This document shows, one piece after another, positions 1,200 through 29,169 of a DNA stretch of 64,000 nucleotides. The notes under the pieces were generated by a model. That model saw only the letters and a list, made by a program, of their open reading frames with translations, was not told where the DNA came from and searched no databases. A program made the translations under genes and the position numbers. The stretch comes from Salinispira sp. (GTDB lineage Bacteria; Spirochaetota; Spirochaetia; DSM-27196; Salinispiraceae): contig CBDDDG010000022.1 in NCBI GenBank assembly GCA_965226555.1, forward strand, positions 96,001 through 160,000. Reading direction: 5' to 3'. Every line of letters begins with the position of its first letter. The stretch's first letter is position 1.

Positions 1200-2150
1200 T
1201 CAGGCGCGAATTGAGCCGACCGTCAGCCCCCGCACAAAGTAGCGCTGAAACAGCGGAAAGGCAATGAGCACCGGCCCGGTGGTAATGAGCAGAGTTGCGA
1301 AAATAATTGTCTGCGTGGGCAGTTGCTGAATAAGTTCAAACAAGCGCGTGCCGCCGATAGTTCCGCTGTTTCGCACCAGAAAGTCAATGTTCTGTTCAAT
1401 GTTAATGAGCAGGTTTGGCAGAGGAGTCCACTTTGGGCTCCGTATGAACAGTAGCGCGGTGTACCAGTTATTCCAGTAATCGAGCATGGTGAAAAATGCT
1501 ATGGTCGCAATGCTGGGCTTGGCAATGGGAACCACCAGCTTAAAGAGTATCTGGAATTCATTGGCTCCTTCAATCCGCCCGGATTCAATAATTCCTGTGG
1601 GAATGTTAAATGCCAGAAAAGATCGCAGAACAATTACATTAAAAGGATTAATAAGTGTCGCAAGCACCAGCACAAGAAAAGTATCGCCGAGAAAAAGAAG
1701 CTGCGTCACCACCATGTAGAAGGGAATGAGACCGGCATTGAAGAGCAGAGTAATGAGCACAATGAAACTGATCTGCCTCCGGAACCTGAATTCAGGGCGC
1801 GAAAGCGCGTAGGCGCAGAGCAGCATAACAAATACTGACAGACAGGTTCCAATTGTCGTCATTGAAATTGATACAAAATATGAACGGCCTATCTGCTGGC
1901 CAGCCTCAAAAATGTAGTCGTAGGCGGCAGTACTCCATTCAGATGGAATAAAACGGTAGCCGAAATTTTTAATGGAATCTTCGGACGAAAACGACACAGA
2001 CGCAACAAGAATAAAGGGAATCAGACAGAGCAGGGCAAATGCGCCAATGCAAATGTTGAGAAAAACATTGCTATGAACCGAAATGGCATTTACCCGCAGA
2101 CTAATTTTTGCGGGTCTGGATTTTGCAGATTTTGCAGATGCAATAGTCAT
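1200..2150 (-). CDS. Carbohydrate ABC transporter permease (MalG-like)
   Basis: Multiple TM helices and EAA loop IIESGRIEGANEFQILFKLVVP; C-terminal FQRYFVRGLTVGSIR. Likely start MTIAS at 2150. Confidence 0.9.
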   Translation of the reverse strand: MTIASAKSAKSRPAKISLRVNAISVHSNVFLNICIGAFALLCLIPFILVASVSFSSEDSIKNFGYRFIPSEWSTAAYDYIFEAGQQIGRSYFVSISMTTIGTCLSVFVMLLCAYALSRPEFRFRRQISFIVLITLLFNAGLIPFYMVVTQLLFLGDTFLVLVLATLINPFNVIVLRSFLAFNIPTGIIESGRIEGANEFQILFKLVVPIAKPSIATIAFFTMLDYWNNWYTALLFIRSPKWTPLPNLLINIEQNIDFLVRNSGTIGGTRLFELIQQLPTQTIIFATLLITTGPVLIAFPLFQRYFVRGLTVGSIRA

Positions 2151-11891: not shown

Positions 11892-13088
11892 TCAAACTAA
11901 GGTAATAAGATATCGAAGAAATTTTTTACTTGTCTCAATGTTGATGTCGTTGTTCGGTTTCAGAATAAGCTCACGTATCGTTTCTCCATGGAATTGAGCC
12001 ACTCCTCGTGAATTTCTCCCTGCCCAATGTTTACGAATATCTGTGGTATTGAGCAAATCAGTTTGAAATACCGATACTAATGCCTGACCAGCAATTTTAT
12101 TTGGGTAAATACCGATAAAATAAAACATGAAAACACTTTTCTCATTGGATAAAAACCTCAGGAACTTATCAATATTGTAGGCCTTGGGAGAAGATTTCAA
12201 AACCATTATCTTTGTTTTAACATCGATGGCTGTATGGTAATCATCAAAAAATTTTGTATAATCGCCTAATTCATTTTTTGTTTTAAACTGAAAGAGTTTT
12301 CCAACATGTTTTCTCAATTCGTCACGGAGTTTACCTCTCATATTCTCATCTTCTCCGATAACGAGATATTCAATTACCCTGCCCCTGATATTCACGTTTT
12401 CTATGAACACAGCTTTGAGAATTTCGTCCTTACAATTATTAACCCTTCTGTTTAATTCAGATGCAAGCGTAATATATTCATTTGATTTGGTGAACTGAAG
12501 AGTTCGTTCGGGGGCTGATAAAATACACGCCTTTTGAGTGGCAGAGACTTCAAACTTACTGCCTGATGGAACAATATTTGTTGTTGCTGCAACAAGACGA
12601 TTGAGAGTATCAGTAAAATTAATTTTCTGATGTATAGCAAAAAGTTTTTCAAAATTTTCCGGGGAATTTTTAAGTCCATTAAATTCTCTCATAATATCGG
12701 CACCATTAAAGCTCCCTCTGATGTTATCAATTCGTAAATCTTGTGAGCTATGGCTGATCTTTTGCAGAAATGTTGAATTTGCCATATAGAGTATGTTTTT
12801 ATTCGGTGTTACAAGACATACAATAAACGGACGTTCATCATATTTTCGCAGAGTCGAAAGGGACAAAACGGTATTCGAAAAACTGTTGGAGGCAGATACA
12901 CTAAAGCGCAGCGCAAAATGTTCTGAATAATATACTGTCCTGTCTCTGGTCAATTTGAATTGCTCTTGTACAGATTCAGCAAGTAATGCCTTATCTGCAA
13001 TGCCGTTCTTTCTTTTAATATATGCTACCAATGCTCTTAGATTACTATTTATGACTATTGGGAACCTCTGGAAACTCGAATTTTTCAT
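11892..13088 (-). CDS. Putative restriction endonuclease (PD-(D/E)XK-like)
   Basis: Directly downstream of the MTase; candidate catalytic LGD...AIDVKTK motif. No family recognised with certainty. Confidence 0.55.
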   Translation of the reverse strand: MKNSSFQRFPIVINSNLRALVAYIKRKNGIADKALLAESVQEQFKLTRDRTVYYSEHFALRFSVSASNSFSNTVLSLSTLRKYDERPFIVCLVTPNKNILYMANSTFLQKISHSSQDLRIDNIRGSFNGADIMREFNGLKNSPENFEKLFAIHQKINFTDTLNRLVAATTNIVPSGSKFEVSATQKACILSAPERTLQFTKSNEYITLASELNRRVNNCKDEILKAVFIENVNIRGRVIEYLVIGEDENMRGKLRDELRKHVGKLFQFKTKNELGDYTKFFDDYHTAIDVKTKIMVLKSSPKAYNIDKFLRFLSNEKSVFMFYFIGIYPNKIAGQALVSVFQTDLLNTTDIRKHWAGRNSRGVAQFHGETIRELILKPNNDINIETSKKFLRYLITLV

Positions 13089-13205
13089 GATTCATTGCGT
13101 AAAACAATGTTGTTTTAAGCTCAATCATGCGGTCACTGGTTAATTTTTTCTGCCAGATATTAGGTTTCCAGAGGTTCCCTATTACTCCTTTCCTGTCATA
13201 TGCAT

Positions 13206-14162
13206 TCATCTTCTCAGCGATCCGCTTTTCATCAGCTCCGCAATCGGGGCGGGCGAATTACGTTCACGGAACACTCCATCAGCATATCCCTGAATTGCGG
13301 AATCGCGCTCTGCCATGGCTAATCGCTTTTCGGTTAAGCAACAGTATTCCTCGCTCATTTCAATGCCAATAAATTTTCTCTTGAGCTTCTTTGCTGTAAC
13401 CGATGTTGTTCCGGAACCGACAAAGGGATCCAGCACCACATCGCCTTCATTTGAGGATGCGAGAATTGCCTTGGCCACAAGTTTTTCGGGCTTCTGGGTC
13501 GGGTGGTCAGTGTTTTCTGGCATTGACCAGAAGGGAATGGTAATATCTGTCCAGAAATTTGAAGGATGCGTTAATCTGAATTTGCCATTGCCATTTTCTG
13601 TCCAGTCCTTCGGTTTGCCGTTGACCGTGTACGGAGCAATGACTTTTCGCTGTAACTTCACCGCATGAACATTGAAGGTGTAATTGTCCGATACTGTTGC
13701 AAACCACATATCCTCCGCGCAATTCTTCCAGTTCCCCAAGGCGCCGCGCCCCTTCTCCCGCTCCCAGGTGATTCTGTTCCGTATCTTAAAATGCCTGTCT
13801 AAAACAGCAAAAATCTGCTGTGAACTCTTCCAGTCGCAGCACACATACATTGACGCAGTCAGCTTGAGCGTGTGCCGTATTGCGAGTATCCAGTTTTCAA
13901 AGGTTTTCTCATACCCATTGGCGGTTTGCGCGCGAAATCTGTTGCCGCCAAAGTTTTTATTCATATTATACGGCGGGTCAATAAAGAGCAGATCAACTGA
14001 AGACTCAGGCAATAAGGGCGCAATTTCGAATATATCGGCATGAATTGTCGTGTTGATACACTTGCCATTGAAGGCTTCTTTTGTCAACAATCGCTTTTTT
14101 AAGATAGCTATTTCGTCCTCTGTCAGATATGTTGTTCTATTGTTCTTTGCCCGTTCTTTCAT
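13206..14162 (-). CDS. Site-specific DNA methyltransferase (N4-C/N6-A, beta class)
   Basis: DPPY motif N-terminal, then HPTQKPEKL and VLDPFVGSGTT. Confidence 0.92.
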   Translation of the reverse strand: MKERAKNNRTTYLTEDEIAILKKRLLTKEAFNGKCINTTIHADIFEIAPLLPESSVDLLFIDPPYNMNKNFGGNRFRAQTANGYEKTFENWILAIRHTLKLTASMYVCCDWKSSQQIFAVLDRHFKIRNRITWEREKGRGALGNWKNCAEDMWFATVSDNYTFNVHAVKLQRKVIAPYTVNGKPKDWTENGNGKFRLTHPSNFWTDITIPFWSMPENTDHPTQKPEKLVAKAILASSNEGDVVLDPFVGSGTTSVTAKKLKRKFIGIEMSEEYCCLTEKRLAMAERDSAIQGYADGVFRERNSPAPIAELMKSGSLRR

Positions 14163-16951
14163 GGTGATGACTTTAATACAGTATTGAGATACTGTCAAGT
14201 TCAATGACATGGAATATTAATATTTGAGATATCTCCATTTCATTTATTAAAAAAAACAAAGGTTCCCCCACCAGTAAAATGTGCTCTAAAGATCAGACAT
14301 CATATAGCATACCCTGAGGGTTACCTTCCAATATCGTCAAAGCTCTTATCCTATTTAAATGCGGGTGGGCAAATTGATTGCGGTAGCTGCGCAAGCAACC
14401 ATAGCAACTGGAATCGCACCCGCACCCACCTTCCACCCGCTCTTTTGATTTAGCCAGAACATTGCGAAAGATATCGACATCTTCTAGCTGTGCCACCAAT
14501 CCTGCCCCACCGGGAACATTATCATATAAAATGATCGCTATTTCATTCGGATTTTCGCCTTTAGCAATTGTCACATTCAAATCTCTATCTGGCACGCTCA
14601 ATGCTGCTGATGCTCCAAGCATAATTGAATAGGCAACAGAATATGCCTGCCATGGTTCGCAAAGTCCCGGAAACTGTAAACGCACTACATCGGTAACCAG
14701 CTCATGTCCCAATGAATATTTGCCCAATGCACATTCACAATCAGAACCCCAAGGAGTTTTATGTGATGAAGATTGTGGTTTCGTAAAGTGCGCGCCACAG
14801 GAGCGACAGATATAAAACCCCTGTTTTTTCTTGCCCTCACACAGAATAACCAAAGTACCAGGTGATGCTCTTGTTATTTTTATTTCATCAATCAATGTTG
14901 TTTGCGGCAATTCTTCATCCCTAAAACCATCGAAGAATGGTTGGGTAGTATAAAGGCGTTGAGTGCGCCTGTTTGGGATTTTTGGTTTCTTTTGCGCAAC
15001 GAATCCGAATATGGGAATGAGATATTTTTTGCTATTTTCTGATTGAGCGTCTTCTAATTTCTGAAAGTCATAAGCGTTATGGTAAGTGTAGTTTTGAATA
15101 GGACAATTTTTGCCTTTTACTATTTTAATGCCAGACGATACCCATTCTAATTTATTGGCAATTATTTTACTTCCAGCCGCATACTCAGCAATTGCTTGAG
15201 ATAAATCCCGCTGCAATGTAAGTTTATTGTTATCGGTTTCTAGTTCTACAACATCTACCGGAAAACCATACTTGGGAATGACTGCTTTACGGGAGAGAAA
15301 ATTTAATGCCGATTCACCAGAAATGGTGTCTATGCGTTTTTCTATGGCATCAGTCCCTTTGTTCATCGTAAAATGTTCTTGTCTCAATTCTTCCAATTTA
15401 TGATAATCCCCACATACTTCGCTTTCCACATTAGCAAGGCGGCTGTCAGGGCCTGTTATTTTGTCAATCCATGAATCATTGTCAATTCCCATTTTATTGT
15501 GCATGCTTTGAGGAATGATTGCGCGCAACGATCTTTTCAAATAATTATTGGTTTTACAGAATACAAACAGTTCAGATTTCGCAGCAGGATTCTCCCAATC
15601 GTGAATAAAGGATTTAACGTTCTTAAAGCGGTCTTCATTTTCCTTGAAAAAGGCAGATAAAACTGTGGCGACTACGTGTCGTAAAATAATTTTCTCGTTT
15701 GTTACTTGTAAGCGTGGCGGGTGTATTGTGCTGTTAATTATTCGCTCCTCCGGATTTTCATAGTGATAGAGATCATGAGGGTTACGACGGCAGTAGGTTA
15801 TTGCTAATCCTTGAGTATTTCGACGTCCAGCTCTTCCGACACGCTGCGTATAGTTAAAAGGCTCTGGAGGCACATTACGAAGAAAGGTAATTTCCAGATC
15901 GCCCAAATCAACACCAACCTCAAACGTAGTAGAAGAACTGAGCAGATGAATACTCCCCATTTTAAATTCATTTTGCCGTTCTTGAGCAACATTGCTACTA
16001 AGTTGAGCAGTGTGTTCTTCAGACCGCAGCGAATAGGGTAGTTCGGCATTTTCATCGCCATTGTTATATAATGCTTCCCACACACGATCCATAAGTTTTG
16101 TTGTTTCTTTTGTGTTTTTCTTCATCAGATAATTTACTGTTTGCGAGTAAGCGATAAAGAAAATGTTTTACAACAGCAGATTGAGCTCCTCCCCACTGAG
16201 ACACGTTTCGGGTGCTTCTTGGCTGTCCGTAGGTATACGCCCATTGCGGGTATGGAGAAAGTTTTTTCCAATTAGGTGTCTCTGCTTCTGTTGGTAATTC
16301 CATGGCGCGTCGCAAACGCATTTCGTTTAGGAGGTACATTAGCAGGTAATATAATTCATCATCGTTGAAGTTCCATGGAGGTTCCTGCAATGGTATTAAA
16401 TCATCCAATTTTATAAAATGTTCAGGCAGTGCCACAAACCACCGGACTAACCCTACGCCGCTGAGCGATAGCCTCTTTTCCTCCGTCAGGCTTTCCTGCA
16501 ATATTGATGTTAATATGTTCCGCCCTCTTGTTTCCTCTGTGTCATCACTTTTGAATAATCCCGCTTGCGCATATTGCTTGTATAATCTGCTTTTAAGGTC
16601 TTCAACGGATAAACCTTCTTCATTGACAGCTTCTGATCGAATGGCTCGAAGTAAAAAATTACGATCACGCAGTTTTTCGTAAGAATCTTGAGCGTACCAT
16701 GCAAAAAATGCGGCTCCTTGGCGACTGTCGGCAAAGGCCAGCACCTTGCGTCTGCCTTCGGGTAGTGACTCATGGAGGGCAGTAGCAATAACAGCATTAG
16801 GGCCGTCTGTCCCGTGTACAATTTCTTGCACAGGATCTCCAAAACTGCCTCGTTGATAGTCACAAACCTCACATTTCTCCAGTTGGTCAGGATTTTTTTC
16901 GTAAGCTTTGCATTTCCTGACTGATCTTGCTTCGAAAATTCGGACAATCCG

Positions 16952-17836
16952 CTAAGCAACACAACAGGATTCTCCTGCTGTTTTCAAAGCATAATTCATC
17001 GGACTCATATAGTCAAGAGAAGAATGAAGCCTCTCTCGGTTATACCAGTTGATGTATTCAAAAACTATCTTCCGCGCCTCCTGAAGGTTCTGAAACCTCG
17101 GCTTACCAAGCTCATTCTTCAGCGTGTGGAAAAAACTTTCCACAAAGGCATTATCGTAGCAATTCCCCCTTCTCGACATCGACTGGGTAATATGTAACAT
17201 TTCCAGTTTGTCTCGAATGCTCTGCGCGCAATACTGCGTTCCCTGATCTGAATGAAAGACCAAGCTATTCAACTCCCCGGGAGTTCTCCGTACGGCCTGT
17301 AACAGAGCCTTTTCCGTCTGTGTGCTCTCCATGGAATCACTGACATTCCAGCCCGTAATTTCCCGGGTATAGATGTCCAGAACCACAACAAGGTACGCAA
17401 ATCCTGCGCCGGCGGGCAGGTACGTGAGGTCCGATGCCCAGACCTCATTCGCTTTCGTAACCGTGGAGCTTTCAATGCGAAACACCCGCGGAGACTTCTT
17501 CTGGGATGGATTGCTCATTGTTGTTCGCGGGCGATATGCCTTCGTTCTCCCCGCATTGAGCCCCGATTCCCTCATAAGCCGGGCGACTCGGTTCCTCCCG
17601 ATTGCTTCACCATGAAGATGCAGCAGCCGGTGAATTCGGGGCGAACCGTAGCATCCCTTATTTTCAGTATACACACGCAGGATTTTACCCGTAAGCTCAT
17701 CATCCCTGCGGGTGTTTTTGGACGGTTCTCTCTTAAGCCAGTCATAGAATCCCGAGCTGGACACCTTCAGAAGTTTGCAGCATGGTGCAACAGCATGTCC
17801 GGTCTGCTTCAGCTGCTCAATTCCTCGATACTTCAT
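16952..17836 (-). CDS. IS3 transposase OrfB (DDE integrase core)
   Basis: YGSPRI, WASDLTY, FHSDQGTQY, GNCYDNAFVESFF, YNRERLHSSL; ATG overlaps the orfA stop (ATGA). Confidence 0.95.
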   Translation of the reverse strand: MKYRGIEQLKQTGHAVAPCCKLLKVSSSGFYDWLKREPSKNTRRDDELTGKILRVYTENKGCYGSPRIHRLLHLHGEAIGRNRVARLMRESGLNAGRTKAYRPRTTMSNPSQKKSPRVFRIESSTVTKANEVWASDLTYLPAGAGFAYLVVVLDIYTREITGWNVSDSMESTQTEKALLQAVRRTPGELNSLVFHSDQGTQYCAQSIRDKLEMLHITQSMSRRGNCYDNAFVESFFHTLKNELGKPRFQNLQEARKIVFEYINWYNRERLHSSLDYMSPMNYALKTAGESCCVA

Positions 17837-18123
17837 TTCAGGCTCTCCTTTCTGCAAAAAAAAACCATTGCATCATTGAGTATTGCCACCGCCTTTTTCT
17901 CGGCGCGCAGTTCCTTTCTCAATCGTTTGTTCTCGGCCAGGGCTTCCTGAAGTTCCCGAAACTCGGGACCTTTCTGGTCGTTCCGAACCCATTTCGCGAG
18001 GGTATGATAACTTGCTATACCCAGCTTTTCCGTCGCCTGCTTCGTGCCAATTTCTTTGGCAAGCTCCACAGCCTGTTCCTTAAAATCCTCAGCATAGAAT
18101 TTTCTGACTTTCCGTGTTTCCAT
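17833..18123 (-). CDS. IS3 transposase OrfA (HTH)
   Basis: FKEQAVELA...LGIASYHTLAKW HTH followed by a leucine-zipper ENKRLRKEL. Confidence 0.92.
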   Translation of the reverse strand: METRKVRKFYAEDFKEQAVELAKEIGTKQATEKLGIASYHTLAKWVRNDQKGPEFRELQEALAENKRLRKELRAEKKAVAILNDAMVFFCRKESLK

Positions 18124-19547
18124 AACACTCTCCTCTCCCTATAGTATCGTGCTTAGAAGAGTGTCCGTTAAATCGAAGCAAGATCATGACAAAAATTCTT
18201 GCTTCGCGGTTGCAACTACATTTTGGTTCAGATAAAGGATGCAATAATTCACCGCAACAACGGCATAATTCCAAATCTGTTGCGTCTGTTACGGGCAAAT
18301 AGTAATCTACCCCAAAATCTGTTTGACTCGGATCACGATTGGCTTCCACAAGTTTCCCGTTATTTTCTTTACCAACGTAATAGTGCTGTCCACATTCTCG
18401 ACAAAGGGCAATTTCCAGTGGCTTAGCTTTTCCATTGTCGCCTTTACGATTTAGTACTATAATGTCTTTGTTATTTTGATGAAGTAGGAATGCTCCTTCC
18501 AATGCGCGCAAAAACGCATGGAGTCGAGGGTGTTTTTTCGCTGGTATTGATTCACCAAAAGTAACGCCGGAATCAGAGAATGATTCTTCAAAGAGTTCCT
18601 GCGCAAAACCCGCAACAATTTTTTTATTATTGTCATTTTTGCTGGAGACAAGGGTGGCGCTTGTAGCGATACATCGAAAAGAATCTTTTTTTCCGCCATC
18701 GTACAATCGTTGTTTGAGGCGTCGAATTAACATGCCCATTTCCATGCCCTTGGTTCCACGGTACTGATGCGCTTCGTCAAGCACAATGAATTGCCAGTTG
18801 GCGCCTTTTCCGTTATCAAACAATGGACTATCATTTGGACGAATAAGTAGATATTCCAGCATTGAATAGTTGGTTAGCAAAATATGCGGAGGATTTGCCC
18901 GCATGTCCTTTCTAAAAATTAACTCTCCCGGATGAGGTTGCTGATCTGTTCCATTGCGGTACCGATTATTCTTATTCTCTGGTGTCTGCCCAATATATTG
19001 TCCAAACGTTGGCAAGAAGGAAGAATTATTTTCTTGTAATTTTTGACATATATCTCCAATCCGTTCGCGCTGATCATTTGCGAGAGCATTCATCGGATAT
19101 AGAATTAAAGCCCGAACTCCGGGATCGCTAAGCTTTCCATTCAAATGCTGCTTATATAACTCAAAAAAGATAGGGTAGAGAAAACACTCCGTTTTACCAC
19201 TGGCGGTGCCAGTTGCAATAACGGTATTTTCATTGTTCTCACACATGGCACGGATAGCATGTTCCTGATGAGAGTAGAGTTCCCTGTCAGCTAGAGCAGG
19301 AATAAGATGATTGGCTTCATTGCCAAAGTATTCTTGCGCAAGCCTGCGCGCATTTAATCCTTTCCTGAAGTCCTTTTGTTCTTCAGGGGTCACCTTCTTT
19401 AATAACTGATTCTCTTGCTCTAAGGCGGCTTGAAAAGATGCTCTCAGCGCCGGATCTTTGAAGAAAAATGAAGTTTTCAGGTAACTTTCATATCGACTAC
19501 GAACTTTTTCACAGATTTTATCAGGGGTGAGTACAGATTGGCTATTA

Positions 19548-21482
19548 TCATTGCTGCTCATTTGCGATCCTCACAATTTTGTCTACATTAACAAAATGAA
19601 TACTTTTTCTTCGTTTATCAACTGGCAAATACTTTAATTCTTTTTGCATCATTTCACCTTTAAGGGCTTGGGTTACTTCCCCCGCGCTAAAACCTTTGCC
19701 GTGTCTATAGCCCCAACTGCGTTTTACCATCGGAATCACTGAAGATGCAGGGTGAGCTATTTTAGGTAGTAAAATCTGAATTTCAGGTTGTGCAATCTGA
19801 ATGAGCTGCTGCACTTTGTCACCAATGATTGCCTTCAAATACTTACAATCATCCAGATTATCATATCTGAACTCTCGAAGAGGAATAGGGATCAGTGAAT
19901 ATCCCGTTTCATTTTGATTTTGGCGAGGATACCTCCTGCCCTGTTGATTATCCCATGCAATTTCAACTCTTTTAATATGGCGGGGTAGCCATAAGTGAAT
20001 TTCCGCATTAGCATCGCCATAGTTTTTAAACTTTTCAGGAGTCATTTGGAAACATGTGTCTTGCCAGTCTGCCGATTCGTTATTCATACACCACCAGATT
20101 CTGGGCAGGTGTAACGAAATCGTAACTTCATCGTTATTGGAGTTACATGTAAATATTTGCTTATCGTATGCTGCGTATGGCGCAACTTCAAATGCGTTCT
20201 CATTTTTTGTCATCAATTTACAGGTATTTTTTGCTGTCAAATCAATATTGTTTCCAATAAACTGAATTCTTGTTGAAGTATGTCCGCTTTTATCTGGTAG
20301 CAATATGGTATTTTCGACATATTCTCCTCCGTTTATTGTAATTTTCTCAAGGCCCTGTATATAGCGAAACGAAATGCTATCTTGCATTTTAATGTTTTCA
20401 TCGTAGACGCGAAGAAAGAACCGTCCTTGCCTCTGAGCCATAACATCTATAAGCTTTTGCTCGGGAAGTTTAATATTTTCTCCCCAGCCATCTGCTTTCT
20501 CTTCACCAACTCGCGCCCAGACAATGTTCTTTCCTGCTATAATCTGTGGCAGATTACCAACAAATAGCTCATTTTCATTATTTGTAAATAGACATTTTCC
20601 CTTTAGTTCTACGGCAATGGATGATGTCAGTGCAATAGGTTTACCCTCATCATCTCTAAATTCATAATTTTGCGTTGATGCATCTTTGTCAAGAAAATAA
20701 AAATGCGCCATAAATCGTTTATCACTACAAAATTCCGGTTCGACACGTATATTACTACCGATTCTTTCCCACTGTTGGGGAGCAATCACAATGAAATGTC
20801 CTTTGGTTAATGTGGAAATTTCACGTCCATCATCACTCCAGTCATTTTTCATTTTAAAAATAAGAGGTTTATTTTCTTTATATAACGTAATTTTGTCGCT
20901 ACTGCCATCAGTAAATATGGTTAACAAATTTTCTGTAAACGATGTTAATTGATATTCGTTATTTAGAGTGTTCAGGCAGCTACCGTTTTGCGTAATCTCC
21001 CTAATTTCCCTACTTTCATTTACCGATAGAAAAATACTCCAGCCAGTAGAAAGATTGCGACAGATAAATTCGGGTTTTGGTTTTATAAAAGAATTATCGC
21101 TTTTGTTCTTATTGTGCTTTTGATGTTTTTGCGTTCTTTTTCCAGGTGCCTTTATTGGACCGCGGTTTGAGTCAGTTTTCTCATTGTGAATGGGATTTTG
21201 AGGCAGCTGTACGGGATCAAGGGGAGGTTGGTGTTGGGTATTATCCGGTGGAGATATAATTTCTCGAGTTGGAGTAGCTGTAATGCCCCCATCTCCCGCT
21301 GTCTGGTTACTGTTAATACGATCATGTGATATTTCAGGTTCAATAGCAGGAGTAGTGGGCTTATTTCCGTTATCCCGGGAATCATTTTCAGCATCAGATG
21401 TCTCATGCATATTATCCTCTTTGGATAATAATTGTGTAATCCACCGTTTACAGAGATTGATTATTTTGCGAATCCAATTCAT
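19548..21482 (-). CDS. Uncharacterised 644-aa protein with a C-terminal ribosomal protein eL13 (L13e)-like domain
   Basis: C-terminus PMVKR...RHGKGFSAGEV...LPVDKRRKSIHFVNV resembles the L13e consensus (R-x-G-R-GFS-x-x-E...I-x-VD-x-RR-x-S-x-H-x-x-NV). Overlaps the helicase start by 14 nt. Confidence 0.7.
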   Translation of the reverse strand: MNWIRKIINLCKRWITQLLSKEDNMHETSDAENDSRDNGNKPTTPAIEPEISHDRINSNQTAGDGGITATPTREIISPPDNTQHQPPLDPVQLPQNPIHNEKTDSNRGPIKAPGKRTQKHQKHNKNKSDNSFIKPKPEFICRNLSTGWSIFLSVNESREIREITQNGSCLNTLNNEYQLTSFTENLLTIFTDGSSDKITLYKENKPLIFKMKNDWSDDGREISTLTKGHFIVIAPQQWERIGSNIRVEPEFCSDKRFMAHFYFLDKDASTQNYEFRDDEGKPIALTSSIAVELKGKCLFTNNENELFVGNLPQIIAGKNIVWARVGEEKADGWGENIKLPEQKLIDVMAQRQGRFFLRVYDENIKMQDSISFRYIQGLEKITINGGEYVENTILLPDKSGHTSTRIQFIGNNIDLTAKNTCKLMTKNENAFEVAPYAAYDKQIFTCNSNNDEVTISLHLPRIWWCMNNESADWQDTCFQMTPEKFKNYGDANAEIHLWLPRHIKRVEIAWDNQQGRRYPRQNQNETGYSLIPIPLREFRYDNLDDCKYLKAIIGDKVQQLIQIAQPEIQILLPKIAHPASSVIPMVKRSWGYRHGKGFSAGEVTQALKGEMMQKELKYLPVDKRRKSIHFVNVDKIVRIANEQQ

Positions 21483-21626: not shown

Positions 21627-22832
21627 ATGAGTAAATCAGCGTATGGGCAGCCAATTATTATTACAGAAGATGAAAAGCTTCTTAAGCCCCAGCAGCCTCC
21701 GAAGCCGGAGGAAGATGAGAAATTTCTGCAGGATCTGATTTTCAAACATGCCGATTGCCTGCCCGTATCGGAAATTGATGACGCCTACACCCCGCTGATC
21801 CCCGTTTGCAGGGAACTGAATACGCATGCCGGTCCCCTAGACATTCTGATGGCCACGCCTGCAGGCAAGCTCGTGATAATTGAAACCAAACTCTGGAGAA
21901 ATCCGGATGCCCGACGGAAGGTAGTTGCGCAAATCCTCGATTATGCGAAAGAACTTGCCCGGTGGTCTTATGAAGATTTATATCGGGAGATTAACAGAAA
22001 CCTGCAGACCTCAGGCAATCATCTCTATAATACGGTTACCGCCTCAGCAGGTGAAGCTTCAGCCCTCGATGAAGCTGCTTTTGTTGATGCTGTGAGCAGA
22101 AACCTCCAAAAAGGTGAATTTTTGCTGTTGCTGGTCGGAGATGGAATTCGGGAGGGCGCAGAAAGATTAACCGAATTTCTGTCAACTGCCGGTAATCTTG
22201 CCTTCACATTTGGCATGATTGAAGTTGCTTTTTTCAAGGCACCGGACATTGGCACTCTGATTATTCCCCGGGTAATAGCCCGCACAGTCGAAATTCAACG
22301 ATCAGTTGTTGAACTCCCTCCGGGACTGCAGCTCCGGGAAGTTGCCGATCAATTTGATACATCACTTTCTCCAGAACGAAAAAAGGAGAAAGAGTTTTAC
22401 AGTACTTTCTGGAGAGAATTTATCAATGGACTTTCACTTGATGATCCCGGACAGCCAATGCCGCATCCTTTAAATGCCGAGAACCAATATTTTTATCTGC
22501 CACCGCAGCCTCCAAAAAGGGTATGGATCAGCGCAGCTTTTATTCCGAGTAAGAAGCAGGTTAGTGTATATTTCACCTGTAGTACCATTCCGCCCGGGCC
22601 TGATATGGCTGAAAAACTGGAGTTTGAGAGGGATGAAATAGTTGCCGAACTTTCCAAACTCGGTGAGGGAATTTACTGGGATATGCCGAAAAGCGTCGGT
22701 GTCTACCGATCTGTTGATGATATATTTGCCCCGGAGAACCGGCAGATAATTCAGGACTTCTTTCAAACCTGGGTAAACCGGTTCATCAATGCCTTTAGGC
22801 CGAGACTAAAGCGGCTGTCTGAAGACAGATAA
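21627..22832 (+). CDS. NucS-like PD-(D/E)XK endonuclease with DUF4268-like C-terminal domain
   Basis: LDIL...IIETKLWRNPDARRKVVAQILDYA nuclease motif; second domain begins FYSTFWREF. Confidence 0.7.
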   Translation: MSKSAYGQPIIITEDEKLLKPQQPPKPEEDEKFLQDLIFKHADCLPVSEIDDAYTPLIPVCRELNTHAGPLDILMATPAGKLVIIETKLWRNPDARRKVVAQILDYAKELARWSYEDLYREINRNLQTSGNHLYNTVTASAGEASALDEAAFVDAVSRNLQKGEFLLLLVGDGIREGAERLTEFLSTAGNLAFTFGMIEVAFFKAPDIGTLIIPRVIARTVEIQRSVVELPPGLQLREVADQFDTSLSPERKKEKEFYSTFWREFINGLSLDDPGQPMPHPLNAENQYFYLPPQPPKRVWISAAFIPSKKQVSVYFTCSTIPPGPDMAEKLEFERDEIVAELSKLGEGIYWDMPKSVGVYRSVDDIFAPENRQIIQDFFQTWVNRFINAFRPRLKRLSEDR

Positions 22833-24777: not shown

Positions 24778-26155
24778 TTATTTATTTGGGGGAGAAGTTT
24801 GCTCATGGGGCATCAGGCGCCGCAGCGGACGAAAATAGGTTTTGGGGCTGTAATCGGCAAGATCAGATACTCTGGTCATATACACACAGGCATAGCTACT
24901 AATCTGCTCGGCATAACGGCTTTCTTCGAGACCGGCGCGAAGCACCTCTCCCCAGTATGGATTAAAGTATTCTCTGTATTTGATGAGAAGTTCCGATATA
25001 CGGTTATTTAACCATTCAATTTTTTTCAAATAAGGTATCAAGTTCGGCTCGGTTAGCCGCTATTCCTTCATGCCGGGCAATATCAAGTTGATTCAGCTTC
25101 AGTTCGAGGGCAGCCTTTTCTGCGTTCAGATGAGCAATTTCCTGCTGAGTGGATTCCCCCCTGAGCACTCCCTTCATCTCATCCTCAAGATCGCTGAGTA
25201 CGAGACCTGTTCGCCAGTCGCAGCTTTTCTTAATGGTAATAACATCACCGTAAATATGGTCGCCGAGGTAAAGAATTTCGTTACCCTGTAATCCAAGATC
25301 CTTTTGAAGTTTTTTAAACCATCCGCCCTGATAAATACCGGTGATCACCTTACCTTCATAATTTGTCATGTTTCCGGTTTTCGTGTCGACCTTGAGAAAG
25401 CGGTGAGCCTTCTGAAAAAATTCCGGTTTGTCTGCAAGGGTTATGACAATATCGAAAAGTTCACGCCAATTCTTATGATTTTTCAGATATGGAGTAATTG
25501 CGTAGTCGAGAATGGTTCGGGAATAGGTATATTCGCTGTTTGTGATCATCATGAGTTTTTTACCATAATCTATGTAACGTTCAAGCAGGAGCGGAATGCG
25601 TTTATCGAGAAGGATGAGGCGCTCGGGCCTATTCTCTAAGACCTTTTTAATGGAACCGTCAATATGCGCGGTATTAATTGCGTCCTGTACGTTCTGTCCA
25701 ATATCGGCGAGCGATGGAAGTTTTACTCCCGTGTTATATAAATCCACAAGCTGGCTGTATAAAACTCCGGCAGAAATGGCAAAATTCGTATCGAGAGGAA
25801 TAAAATTCGTATCTTGAATATCAATTGCGATATTCTGATAAAAATTCTGAACCTGCCGATAATGTATTTCCTTCAATCCATGAAATGCCCTTTTCACCTT
25901 ACCAAAGCGATTGAGCTTCAGAAGGTTACCGTTTTTGCTGTCAATTACCAGACCGACAATGGCACGGTCGTAATCAAATTCAAGTTCCCGTATTTCCGGC
26001 GGATATTCATAGTGTTCGGTGAGTATACGTAATGCTTCGGTATGCGCAAGTTTTTCAAAAGCTTTGATATTGTAGCATACAAGAGTGTAGTCCATATCGA
26101 AGCCGATGAGTTTGATTTTTTTAAGATTCAGGGAACGATTTACGTATACTGCCAT
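24778..26155 (-). CDS. HAD-IG (cN-II type) 5'-nucleotidase, frameshift in an A7 run at about 25020
   Basis: GFDMDYTL, ITNS, KPEFF, LYLGDHIYGDV; C-terminal part FNPYWG...YACVY...RRLMPHE lies in the adjacent frame. Confidence 0.88.
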
Positions 26156-28995
26156 TATTCTTTTTCCGGGAAAAGTATAATTTCCGCATATGAGGAATTT
26201 TCAAAAACCCGTTTAGCGGAATTCTGAATATCATCTGCGCTCAGCTCATCGTACCATGCGGTTTTTTCCAGAGCATATTCCCAGCCGAGGTCATTTTTGG
26301 TGAGAAATTCAATTTGTCCCAGCCACCATCCATTTCTTTCAAGATTTTCTTCATAACTCACTCGCTGACTCTCTGAAACCCGCTGCGCATATTCCTCGCC
26401 CAGTCCCTCGGCAACAATGCTGGTAATCTCGTTTCTGATCAGGGTAGTGAGTTCCTGAACCCGCTCAGGCTCGGTACTGAAATTTATGGTAAACAGATAA
26501 TCTTCATCGGGAACCCGATTCAGGGTGAATGAAGCATTAATACTGTATGTTCCGCCGACTTCCTCTCTCACAAGCTCAATGAGCCGAATGTTAAGCGCGC
26601 TGCTGAGGGCGGAAAAATCGTAGAGGGTGTCGTAATTCCAGAGAATTTCATCGCTCCATGCAAGTGTTACAATGGCTAAGGGTTCTATTCCGGCGTAAAT
26701 TTCATCGCGGATATTTTCGGTAAAGTAATCAAGTCCATTATCGCGCGCTGTTTCCTGTTTTCCCCCATCGGGAAGACTGGCAATCCATTGAGTAACCTTC
26801 TGTTTCAACTCCTCAGGTTCAAAGGCGCCAACGAAAAAGAAGGTGAAATCGCCCGCATGGGTGAACCGTTCTCTGAAAAACGAAAGAAGCTCGTCATAGT
26901 CGAGATCAGAAACATCTTCAGGCAGGGGACTGCGCAGGGGATAGGTGAGCGCGCGGAAATGATTGTTGAAGAGGGCCGCGTTTAAACGATTCCGATACTG
27001 AACCCGCGGATCCCGTTTCCTGATTTTCAAGGAATGCCGAGAGGCGGCTGCGGTACGACTCCCAGGCTTCAGTATCTTCGCCAAGGTCGGTAAAATACAG
27101 ATAATTCAACTGCAGCATGGTTTCAAGATCATCAGGAGAAACACTTCCAGAAAGTCCTTCTTCATATTCGGAAATCCATGGAGATATATCGACCTGCTTC
27201 CCTGCCAGCGCCTTACCGATATCCACTGAACTCAGCGCGCCAAGCCCTCCCGTTGATACGGCAAGTGTTGAAAGGGCAGCAGCTGTATAATTATCATTAT
27301 CAATAAGGCTGAGACCGCCCCTGCTGACGGCGCTGAATAGAATTTCGTCATCTTTGAAATCTGTCGGCTTTGCATATACAACAGCGCCGTTGGAAAGTTC
27401 CCAGCGATATATCCCTGAATAACTATCGAAAAGTTCCTGTTGAATAGTTCCATGGCTTGGAGTATTGGGCACAAGTTCATTATCTGCGGTATTGTCAGTC
27501 CATGGAGACGGATTTTTATCGGCGCCGGAATGATAGGCAGAGAATATTTTTTCCTTCGTCAATGAGATGTTTTCAAGTTCCTCAGGTCCGGTGATGATTA
27601 TTGTATTGTTTCTATTATCAAGGCGTTCCTGAGTAATTGTTTCAAAATCGTCAATAGTAATGCCTGGCATGATCTGCTGAACAGTTTCCCATTCCAGTTT
27701 GTAGACGGCACAGGTTCTCCCGTTAAGTAATGTTCCTGCAGTATGCCGGGATATTGCCAGTGTTCCCGATTATCCTGTTCCTTCCACTGTCTTTCATACC
27801 GGCTCAGCAGCTGTTTCTTTGCCCGTTCAAGTTCGCTACTGAGAAAACCATGGCGCCGTATCCGCTCAAATTCTTCTGAAACTCGTTCTATGGCCTGTTC
27901 AATTTCTTCCACCTCGGCGAGAATGGAGCTGCCGTTACGACGGGTCCAGCGGGTATATGCGTTTGAATAGGCAGATGCGGTAATAAAGGGCGGGTCGGCT
28001 TCCTGAACAATTTCAAACAACCTCTGATTAATCATTTATAAAAGAGTTGGTCAATGAGAGAATGCGGTATTCATGCACTGTACGAATTTCAGGAACAGTA
28101 TAACGCGTGGTAAGAATTTCAACAGAGGTAACTGTTTCTTCAGGGTCGCTTGCAACAATGAACTGCTCCGATTGGCTTTCAGGCACATCAAATTTTCTTC
28201 TGTTCCGAGAGGGCATGGGATTCTGATGTTTTGAAAAACGTTCACGGATCATTGTCTCAATTTCAGAACTATCAAAATCGCCTACTGCAATAATTGCCAT
28301 GAGATCAGGACGATACCAATCTTCATAAAACGCCGCAGAGTTTCCGGATCGGCAGTTTCAATGATCTCCGGCTTGCCAATGGGAAGGCGCTCCGCATACA
28401 GTGACCCCTCAAAAGTACGGGGAGAATTTTCTGTAAAATCCGCTGCCGGGCGCCCGCGGCCGATGCGCCACTCTTCGAGAATAACATTTCGTTCGCTTAT
28501 AACATCCTGTTCCTGAGTGTTATGGGAGAATGCCCAATGTTCAAGTATTTCAAAGCCCTGTTCAAGGCGTATTACCGCGGTCTGTTGGTACAGAGAGCAT
28601 GTATACTGTTTCATCAAAGCTTGTATACGCATTAATATCGGGACCAAATTTATTCCCGCATTTTGAAGAAAGGAAATGAGATCATTTTCAGGGATACAGT
28701 TCGGTACCGTTAAAGGCCATGTGCTCAAGAAAATGAGCGAGCCCTGCTGATCATCATCTTCCAGTATTGAGCCGGCATTAACAACGAGCCGTAATTCTGC
28801 GCGGTTTTCCGGTTTACTATTTTCAACAATATAATACACAAGTCCGTTTTCCAGGGTTCCGTGAGTTATTGCGGTATCAAAGGGAATTTCTGCCATATCC
28901 GCGGCATGCGGGATATTTCCGGTACTCTGACAGGAAAATAGCAAAATACTACAAACACATAACAGAGTGAGTAGCTTAGCGTGTAAGGTATACAT
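26155..28995 (-). pseudogene. M16 family zinc peptidase (PqqL-like) lipoprotein, multiply frameshifted
   Basis: Lipobox LLFSC, GTLENGLVYY...VNAGS; the HxxEH motif AHFLEHMAFNGT is readable in a shifted frame at about 28740; LSNGAVVYAKPTDFK; spread over at least 5 ORF pieces. Confidence 0.85.
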
Positions 28996-29011
28996 AATTT
29001 TATTTCTCCTT

Positions 29012-29038
29012 AAAATTTTTGCATAAGGCAAAAATTTC
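29012..29038. repeat. Short-type palindromic repeat
   Basis: AAAATTTTTGCATAAGGCAAAAATTTC, matching the first half of the copy at 51817. Confidence 0.65.
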
Positions 29039-29076
29039 AAATGGCTGGTCGGAGGCTGCGCATCCGGTTCGCCCAT

Positions 29077-29169
29077 GTTTCCGATCTGGAATGCTTTCTT
29101 TGTGCTTAGCATTCTTCTATTTTATACAAATTTTTGCATTGATAAAGTTTTGCCTGTGGCAAAACTTTC
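29077..29169. repeat. Copy of the 64-bp repeat fused to a short-type palindromic repeat
   Basis: 29077-29140 matches 8302-8365; 29128-29169 is close to the reverse complement of 51817-51859. Confidence 0.8.

Follow-up and report, generated by a model that had tools for sequence, protein, structure and literature searches.

The window, the 64,000-nucleotide stretch of a Salinispira sp. contig analyzed here, carries on its minus strand a partner gene, P0001, followed by a gene for a DruE/YprA-type helicase that is interrupted by an IS3-family element. The features, in window coordinates, are as follows:

19548-21482, minus strand: partner gene P0001 (644 aa), with an amphipathic helix, a disordered linker, an Ig/Fn3-like array and an eL13-like tail
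21423-21479, minus strand: predicted N-terminal amphipathic helix, residues 2-20 (hydrophobic moment 0.73)
21090-21419, minus strand: predicted disordered linker, residues 22-131 (pLDDT <50 for residues 22-124)
19788-21080, minus strand: all-beta core, residues 135-565, about five predicted Ig/Fn3-like domains
19551-19745, minus strand: eL13-like tail, residues 580-644 (net charge +7)
18187-19561, minus strand: N-terminal part of the DruE/YprA-type helicase (DEAD domain), whose start overlaps the last 14 nt of the partner gene
16922-18186, minus strand: IS3-family element within the helicase gene, with 37-nt inverted repeats and TGAC duplicated on both sides
14293-16921, minus strand: C-terminal part of the helicase (Helicase_C, MZB/DUF1998), with no nuclease after MZB
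11892-14210, minus strand: type II restriction-modification pair (MTase 13206-14210, REase 11892-13088)
21627-22832, plus strand: divergent NucS-like/DUF4268-like nuclease gene

The best PADLOC matches of the helicase were DruE. The IS3-family element is recently active: the assembly holds 11 full-length copies (97.9-100%), and the depth of the IS3 contig is about 15-fold or higher compared to the flanks. In sequencing runs X1 and X2, contigs extend into both ends of the element, and no joint skipping it was found among the contigs listed for these runs. As the helicase is interrupted by this element, the cassette is probably inactive in this genome. Near position 16112 the helicase gene has an apparent frameshift, and its product is there about 76 aa shorter than that of L003. 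A run X1 contig has one base fewer at this place, after which the frame stays open for 875 codons, making real damage doubtful and an assembly indel the likely cause. Elsewhere in the window, an M16-type peptidase gene (26155-29112) appears by eye to be spread over several short frames, possibly through assembly indels.

The island between 11.9 and 21.5 kb has a GC content of 0.415 vs 0.45-0.55 on its flanks, and a search of 60 genomes of the same order gave no member of the partner family. The occurrence of the cassette is patchy, and it has likely been moved horizontally. No match to the partner core was found in plasmids, phages or viral contigs. Archaeal contamination of the contig was ruled out by the bacterial-type neighbours and by the contig GC of 0.466, which is like the rest. 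Neither the restriction-modification pair nor the NucS-like gene is a conserved partner of the cassette.

The eL13 protein is normally an archaeal and eukaryotic ribosomal protein, and the initial annotation had proposed an eL13-like domain at the C-terminal end of P0001, quoting a peptide that corresponds to residues 584-636 of the minus-strand ORF 19548-21482. This proposal was borne out by sequence profiles. The NCBIfam model NF008914 (archaeal L13e) matched P0001 with E=1.4e-5 for the whole protein and 4.1e-7 for the 80-aa tail, and in a genome scan gave a single match in the Salinispira genome (2.1e-6) and none in 14 control genomes. Its 24.6-29.5 bits lie far under the 96-bit equivalog cut-off, and as the C-terminal domain of a 644-aa protein the match is no ribosomal-protein equivalog. 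The profile that had been suggested as a check, Pfam Ribosomal_L13e (PF01294), misses this copy, with no match at E≤1 to P0001 or its tail and none to P0001 in the genome scan, but it matches 85 of 119 homologues at E≤0.01 and exceeds its gathering score in 39 of the 119 (both taken from the best 120 of 289 homologues). The top PDB sequence for the last 80 aa was an archaeal eL13, 9e6q_AH (phmmer, E=0.0057). When a 73-sequence family profile was run against the PDB sequences, 73 matches were obtained at E≤1, and the 60 listed were all eL13, the best at 2.5e-11; the reciprocal search with the tail profile retrieved named archaeal L13e proteins.

Structure prediction pointed the same way. In the full-length AlphaFold model of P0001, the tail has a pLDDT of 85-94, and in a search of 48,161 chains the top four matches were all eL13. 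The archaeal 9e6q_AH came first over model residues 580-644 (Z 7.6, rmsd 2.4, 63 residues aligned), in a search where Z values below 8 are common and where the next matches, Fn3 domains, reach Z 6.8. A model of the tail by itself was of low confidence (59.5) and gave no meaningful structural match, and the ESM Atlas gave no usable match for the tail or the core.

The Salinispira tail is among the most diverged copies, as is P0001 as a whole, with the invariant residues G597, F598, S599, E602, D622 and R625 as well as H629 and N632 all retained. Across the family, the mean tail identity is 49% vs 42-58% for the core domains, and the mean net charge of the tails (+7.5) is similar to that of free L13e. 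The tail has its motif, predicted fold and positive charge in common with the archaeal short form of eL13 (NF008914, PF01294, 9e6q_AH), including the archaeal spacing without the 4-residue eukaryotic insertion, and it covers positions 24-71 of the 83 in the archaeal model. Unlike archaeal eL13, it forms the end of a bacterial protein of 644 aa, has no lysine-rich C-terminal extension, scores below both curated cut-offs and lies outside a ribosomal gene context. The match of the family profile spans human residues 62-120, a region that covers the hairpin and helices of human eL13 that bind 28S rRNA, according to the accessible text of PMC10665555. Profile and model evidence confirm that the last 65 residues of P0001 are a true homologue of the rRNA-binding core of eL13.

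Beyond the tail, P0001 is less easily named, as its all-beta core had no match in Pfam, PADLOC, PHROG or Atlas. We collected 289 homologues and examined the best 120. An extra Ig-like domain precedes the tail in many relatives (54 of these 120 by a crude motif count), and this optional domain is the only one of the family that resembles phage virion proteins. A hydrophobic moment above 0.6 was found at the N terminus of 40-42% of the long members of both clades of the family (see below), vs 7% of background ORFs, and the predicted amphipathic helix may serve as a membrane anchor. Several members depart from this layout. At L050:7785-10760, three repeats of the C-terminal core half come before the eL13 tail, and at L047:5583-9653 the partner follows a fused sigma70 (regions 2-4) and its eL13 tail is degenerate. 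Other N-terminal additions are PIN (P0114), HTH (P0079), DUF4389 (P0038) and a weak HSDR_N (P0392, P0393, P0420). The family also explains "L13e" misannotations on proteins of 340-700 aa (WP_125672376.1, MDE0004075.1).

The suggested link to a helicase proved general. A helicase gene lies directly downstream of the partner in 47 of 50 related loci spanning many bacterial phyla; of the three exceptions, one lies at a contig end, one has a truncated partner and one is a fragment. No third conserved gene was found across these loci. The family helicases end right after MZB, without nuclease or C-terminal PLD domains. By analogy, and given the restriction-modification neighbours in the window and the hsdM that is split in L073, the cassette is likely anti-phage. 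In 29 of 33 loci, the helicase gene shares its first 8 nt with the end of the eL13-coding sequence, as would be expected if the tail were a neutral passenger kept for carrying the helicase translation start. The long branch of the Salinispira copy and the changes in the tail of a related strain (3 non-synonymous vs 5 synonymous) would also fit drift. However, 20-50 codons separate the invariant residues from the overlap downstream, and swapped tails mostly leave a gap of 33-170 nt before the helicase (7 of 11 other-tailed loci) with the helicase intact, so we consider this explanation very improbable.

The motif was found in 107 of the best 120 of the 289 homologues, nearly always at the very C-terminal end. 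The expectation that homologues would keep it therefore held, but the domain is not a fixed feature of the protein, the slot having been swapped repeatedly. The remaining 13 of these 120 lack eL13, and two of them look truncated; the replacement tails include uS17, bS6-like domains (Pfam significant in one, weak in one and two by likeness), a NusA C-terminal repeat and unnamed domains. In one further homologue, a NusB is inserted before eL13, and the related loci contribute uS17 and TrcR tails as well as the N-terminal sigma70. At least 7 tail changes are forced on the core tree of the first clade (50 chosen rows) and at least 11 on that of the second (49 rows). Most replacement tails are nucleic-acid binders or strongly basic (uS17, bS6-like, NusB, TrcR, C2H2-finger-like and basic helical domains). 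Judged from these sequences, eL13 is one state, the majority or default one, of a swappable tail slot. In L012, L014, P0089, P0098, P0102, P0104 and P0118, a domain of ~65 aa is inserted between the two motifs of eL13, and by eye it resembles the stand-alone tail of P0047 and P0051.

Three swapped tails were compared with their hosts, and all are diverged duplicates of genes that the host has retained (54% for uS17, 64% for TrcR and, in 3 of 3 genomes, 38-49% for a Dehalococcoidia domain). These cases suggest an integrated decoy, in which the slot would copy host translation or transcription proteins that are attacked by phage factors, and binding of such a factor would trigger the helicase; eL13 would once have been bait in hosts that own it, with cross-reaction or inertia keeping it in place elsewhere. 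The NusB, NusA-repeat and bS6-like tails, the member with an N-terminal sigma70 and the existence of archaeal-labelled members with eL13 tails are in line with it, and DruH has been proposed to be a sensor of phage proteins in the accessible Druantia texts. Yet eL13 is the majority tail and is conserved in bacteria without an eL13 of their own to protect, the eL13 tails of the second clade cluster together rather than with the L13e of their hosts (weakly resolved), and no host protein is known that could have been the model for the zinc-finger and basic helical tails. We therefore regard a decoy as possible but unlikely.

A scan of metagenomes revealed a second clade, first represented by L073, in which a divergent partner with an eL13 tail accompanies a 1601-aa helicase. 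The cassette (L073:3120-11903) lies between the two halves of a type I hsdM and beside three tRNA genes, in a bacterial-type context. The hhalign probability was 99.1% between the L073 partner and the first clade and 98.8% from clade to clade, the latter being partly driven by the tail, yet extending over core residues 287-560. This partner has 110 homologues, including several from bacteria; 57 of the 110 end in eL13 and the others in C2H2-finger-like or basic helical domains. Archaeal-labelled members carry eL13 tails in Ca. Methanodesulfokora, Aenigmatarchaeota and Promethearchaeota and other tails in Freyarchaeota and Helarchaeota, and archaeal labels are scattered across the core tree of the clade (49 rows). 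Archaeal and WOR-3 labels occur together in one 90% cluster, indicating either recent transfer or mis-binning.

In the representative search, the tail gave 1352 matches at E≤0.001. Among the best 150 of these were 131 new identifiers, 86 of them in the partner family, and the rest included free L13e, a group of proteins with an acidic linker and eL13, and a PLD fusion. No helicase lay nearby in any of the four acidic-linker loci (L059-L062), meaning that eL13 is used in other settings too. The acidic-linker proteins (P0273, P0268, P0292, P0345 and others) have an amphipathic N terminus, a long acidic disordered region and eL13, and one of them is annotated L13e in a Rhodospirillaceae MAG. P0342 (765 aa) has two PLD-like domains and then an eL13 tail, and in P0347 and P0331 helix-hairpin-helix domains are fused to a short-type L13e.

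These fusions bear on a further reading, in which the tail docks the helicase by replacing the C-terminal helical domain with which DruH, in the accessible descriptions, contacts the DruE stalk. The tail occupies the same position in the protein as that domain, and its coding end is the one overlapped by the helicase start in 29 of 33 loci. Nevertheless, close relatives carry unrelated folds in place of the tail, with about 71% per-column conservation kept in the helicase, and eL13 also occurs on the proteins without a helicase, so that docking seems to us quite improbable.

The initial annotation had stated that eL13 is absent from bacterial ribosomes. This is nearly true, but not strictly so at the gene level. 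NF008914 matched 4 of 401 genomes of the phylum of the window, namely the Salinispira genome and three with free-standing genes. These eL13-like genes code for 65-71 aa (E about 1e-15 to 1e-16) and come from 3 of 5 genomes of one class:

L137 (G107), 1465-1680, plus strand: free-standing eL13-like gene
L138 (G065), 1510-1716, minus strand: free-standing eL13-like gene
L139 (G081), 1528-1725, plus strand: free-standing eL13-like gene

Their neighbours are gyrA, moaE/mobA and a napF-like gene, a housekeeping bacterial context, and the partner core was not found in the three genomes. On their sequence, these genes are candidates for a bacterial eL13; Yutin et al., in the part of the text available, place L13e in Cren-, Thaum- and Korarchaeota. 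By suggesting that bacterial rRNA may accept eL13, the free-standing genes lend something to the idea of a ribosome tether, whereby the tail would bind ribosomes or nascent rRNA and either place the system at sites of expression or stall translation on infection. The recurrence in the slot of ribosomal and rRNA-antitermination proteins (uS17, bS6-like, NusB) agrees with this idea, but the site on the mature ribosome would already be filled by the host's own uS17 or bS6, and the YprA helicases examined to date work on DNA, according to the available parts of the literature. Such a tether is, in our judgment, doubtful.

The suggested phylogeny gave a partial answer. In trees of the eL13 tails (57 columns), a single origin of the fused tails was neither rejected (p-AU 0.33-0.57) nor shown, no donor was resolved, and the Salinispira copy sat on a long branch. 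In one broad scenario, the proteins would form a family of helicase defence sensors, anchored in the membrane and shared across domains, with a hot-swappable tail drawn from the ribosome and transcription machinery of the host. The eL13 domain would have been captured once, in a host bearing eL13, and then passed between archaea and a wide range of bacterial phyla; free eL13 would be a genuine and overlooked ribosomal protein in one bacterial class. We find this whole scenario rather unlikely.

The reading that we prefer, plausible but evenly poised, is that eL13 is the default tail of a DruH-like partner in a two-gene, Druantia-III-like cassette, where the eL13 core is reused to grip nucleic acid. 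The amphipathic helix and long tether would suspend the partner from the inner membrane, and the Ig array would be a scaffold or a sensor, a role also proposed for DruH. Structured RNA, or the ssDNA of phage replication or transcription intermediates, would be bound by the basic tail, letting the YprA helicase load and unwind, and cutting would be left to other host nucleases. We favor a grip because the matched region corresponds to the rRNA-binding hairpin and helices of eL13 described in PMC10665555, because the tail stays basic and conserved in hosts without eL13, and because most replacement tails are nucleic-acid binders. Since the conserved tail residues are the same as in free eL13, fold stability alone could also explain their conservation. 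A search for an RNA holder listed none. Against a uniform grip, not all replacement tails are basic, the net charge of the last 100 aa being -4 to +1 in six members (P0107, with the NusA repeat; P0009 and P0085, both bS6-like; P0400, P0404 and P0361).

These assignments add an undescribed partner for nuclease-less Druantia-III-like helicases and place an archaeal/eukaryotic ribosomal domain outside the ribosome in bacteria. The single scaffold with eL13, uS17, bS6-like, TrcR, zinc-finger and other tails amounts to a natural experiment, in which tail swaps could probe sensing, and the free-standing genes could revise the distribution of ribosomal proteins between domains. In the literature searched, we found no report naming "L13e" and "Druantia" together, nor any of this fusion or of a bacterial eL13. 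The accessible parts of the Druantia literature do not mention L13 as a protein or ribosomes, and the available main text of Bell et al. 2025 (10.1101/2025.09.15.676423) contains no L13, ribosom- or DruH, while its supplements may bear on novelty. The sources, each available in part, were 10.64898/2026.05.13.724758, 10.64898/2026.05.13.724313, 10.64898/2026.05.12.722862, PMC13192584, PMC13316683, PMC3353972 and PMC10665555. Within that literature the partner family is undescribed, and its gene and domain content mark it as a real, conserved variant that is Druantia-III-like.

Like Druantia type III, the eL13-tailed cassette consists of two genes with the partner first, followed by a helicase with DEAD, Helicase_C and MZB/DUF1998 domains. 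DruH, as described in the accessible texts, has six Ig-like domains between helical domains, binds ssDNA or forked DNA, contacts the DruE stalk through its C-terminal domain and possibly senses phage proteins. The partner, with its predicted Ig/Fn3-like array, is shorter, with an amphipathic helix and disordered linker where DruH has its N-terminal helical domain and a swappable tail where DruH has its C-terminal one. No sequence link between the two was found: the PADLOC DruH models matched none of 22 family members, nor P0001, while matching the E. coli control; hhalign of the partner against E. coli DruH gave 0.1-0.3%; and a profile search on three DruH gave no partner match. The core structure matched Ig/Fn3 domains at Z about 6, including 1t0p, which has been named for DruH domain D4, a generic fold, and no DruH structures were among the structural matches listed for the core.

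The family helicase, of about 1400 aa, falls outside the canonical DruE III clade. In a tree of 19 rows with long branches, which did not include the Bell reference GIH50614.1, the family helicases, that of L073 and one from a Clostridium plasmid formed a clade (95/96) apart from canonical DruE III (100/100). This closest plasmid helicase, from Clostridium butyricum, has a 1069-aa partner (L053:3759-6968) that matches neither DruH nor the partner family. Druantia type III-A has C-terminal PLD domains on DruE that are absent from the family helicases; their lack of a nuclease fits the "Type III-like" or III-B branch, which is mostly nuclease-less in the available text of Bell et al. 2025. By analogy, the cassette would work like Druantia III, which it resembles by position and predicted Ig content, with a partner that fails the DruH sequence tests. 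Plant NLR-IDs are integrated-decoy receptors in which a conserved scaffold ends in a variable domain that copies host proteins. Unlike them, the partner has no NLR domains, and most hosts contain no counterpart of its majority tail; like them, the partner family presents a variable terminal domain on a conserved scaffold.
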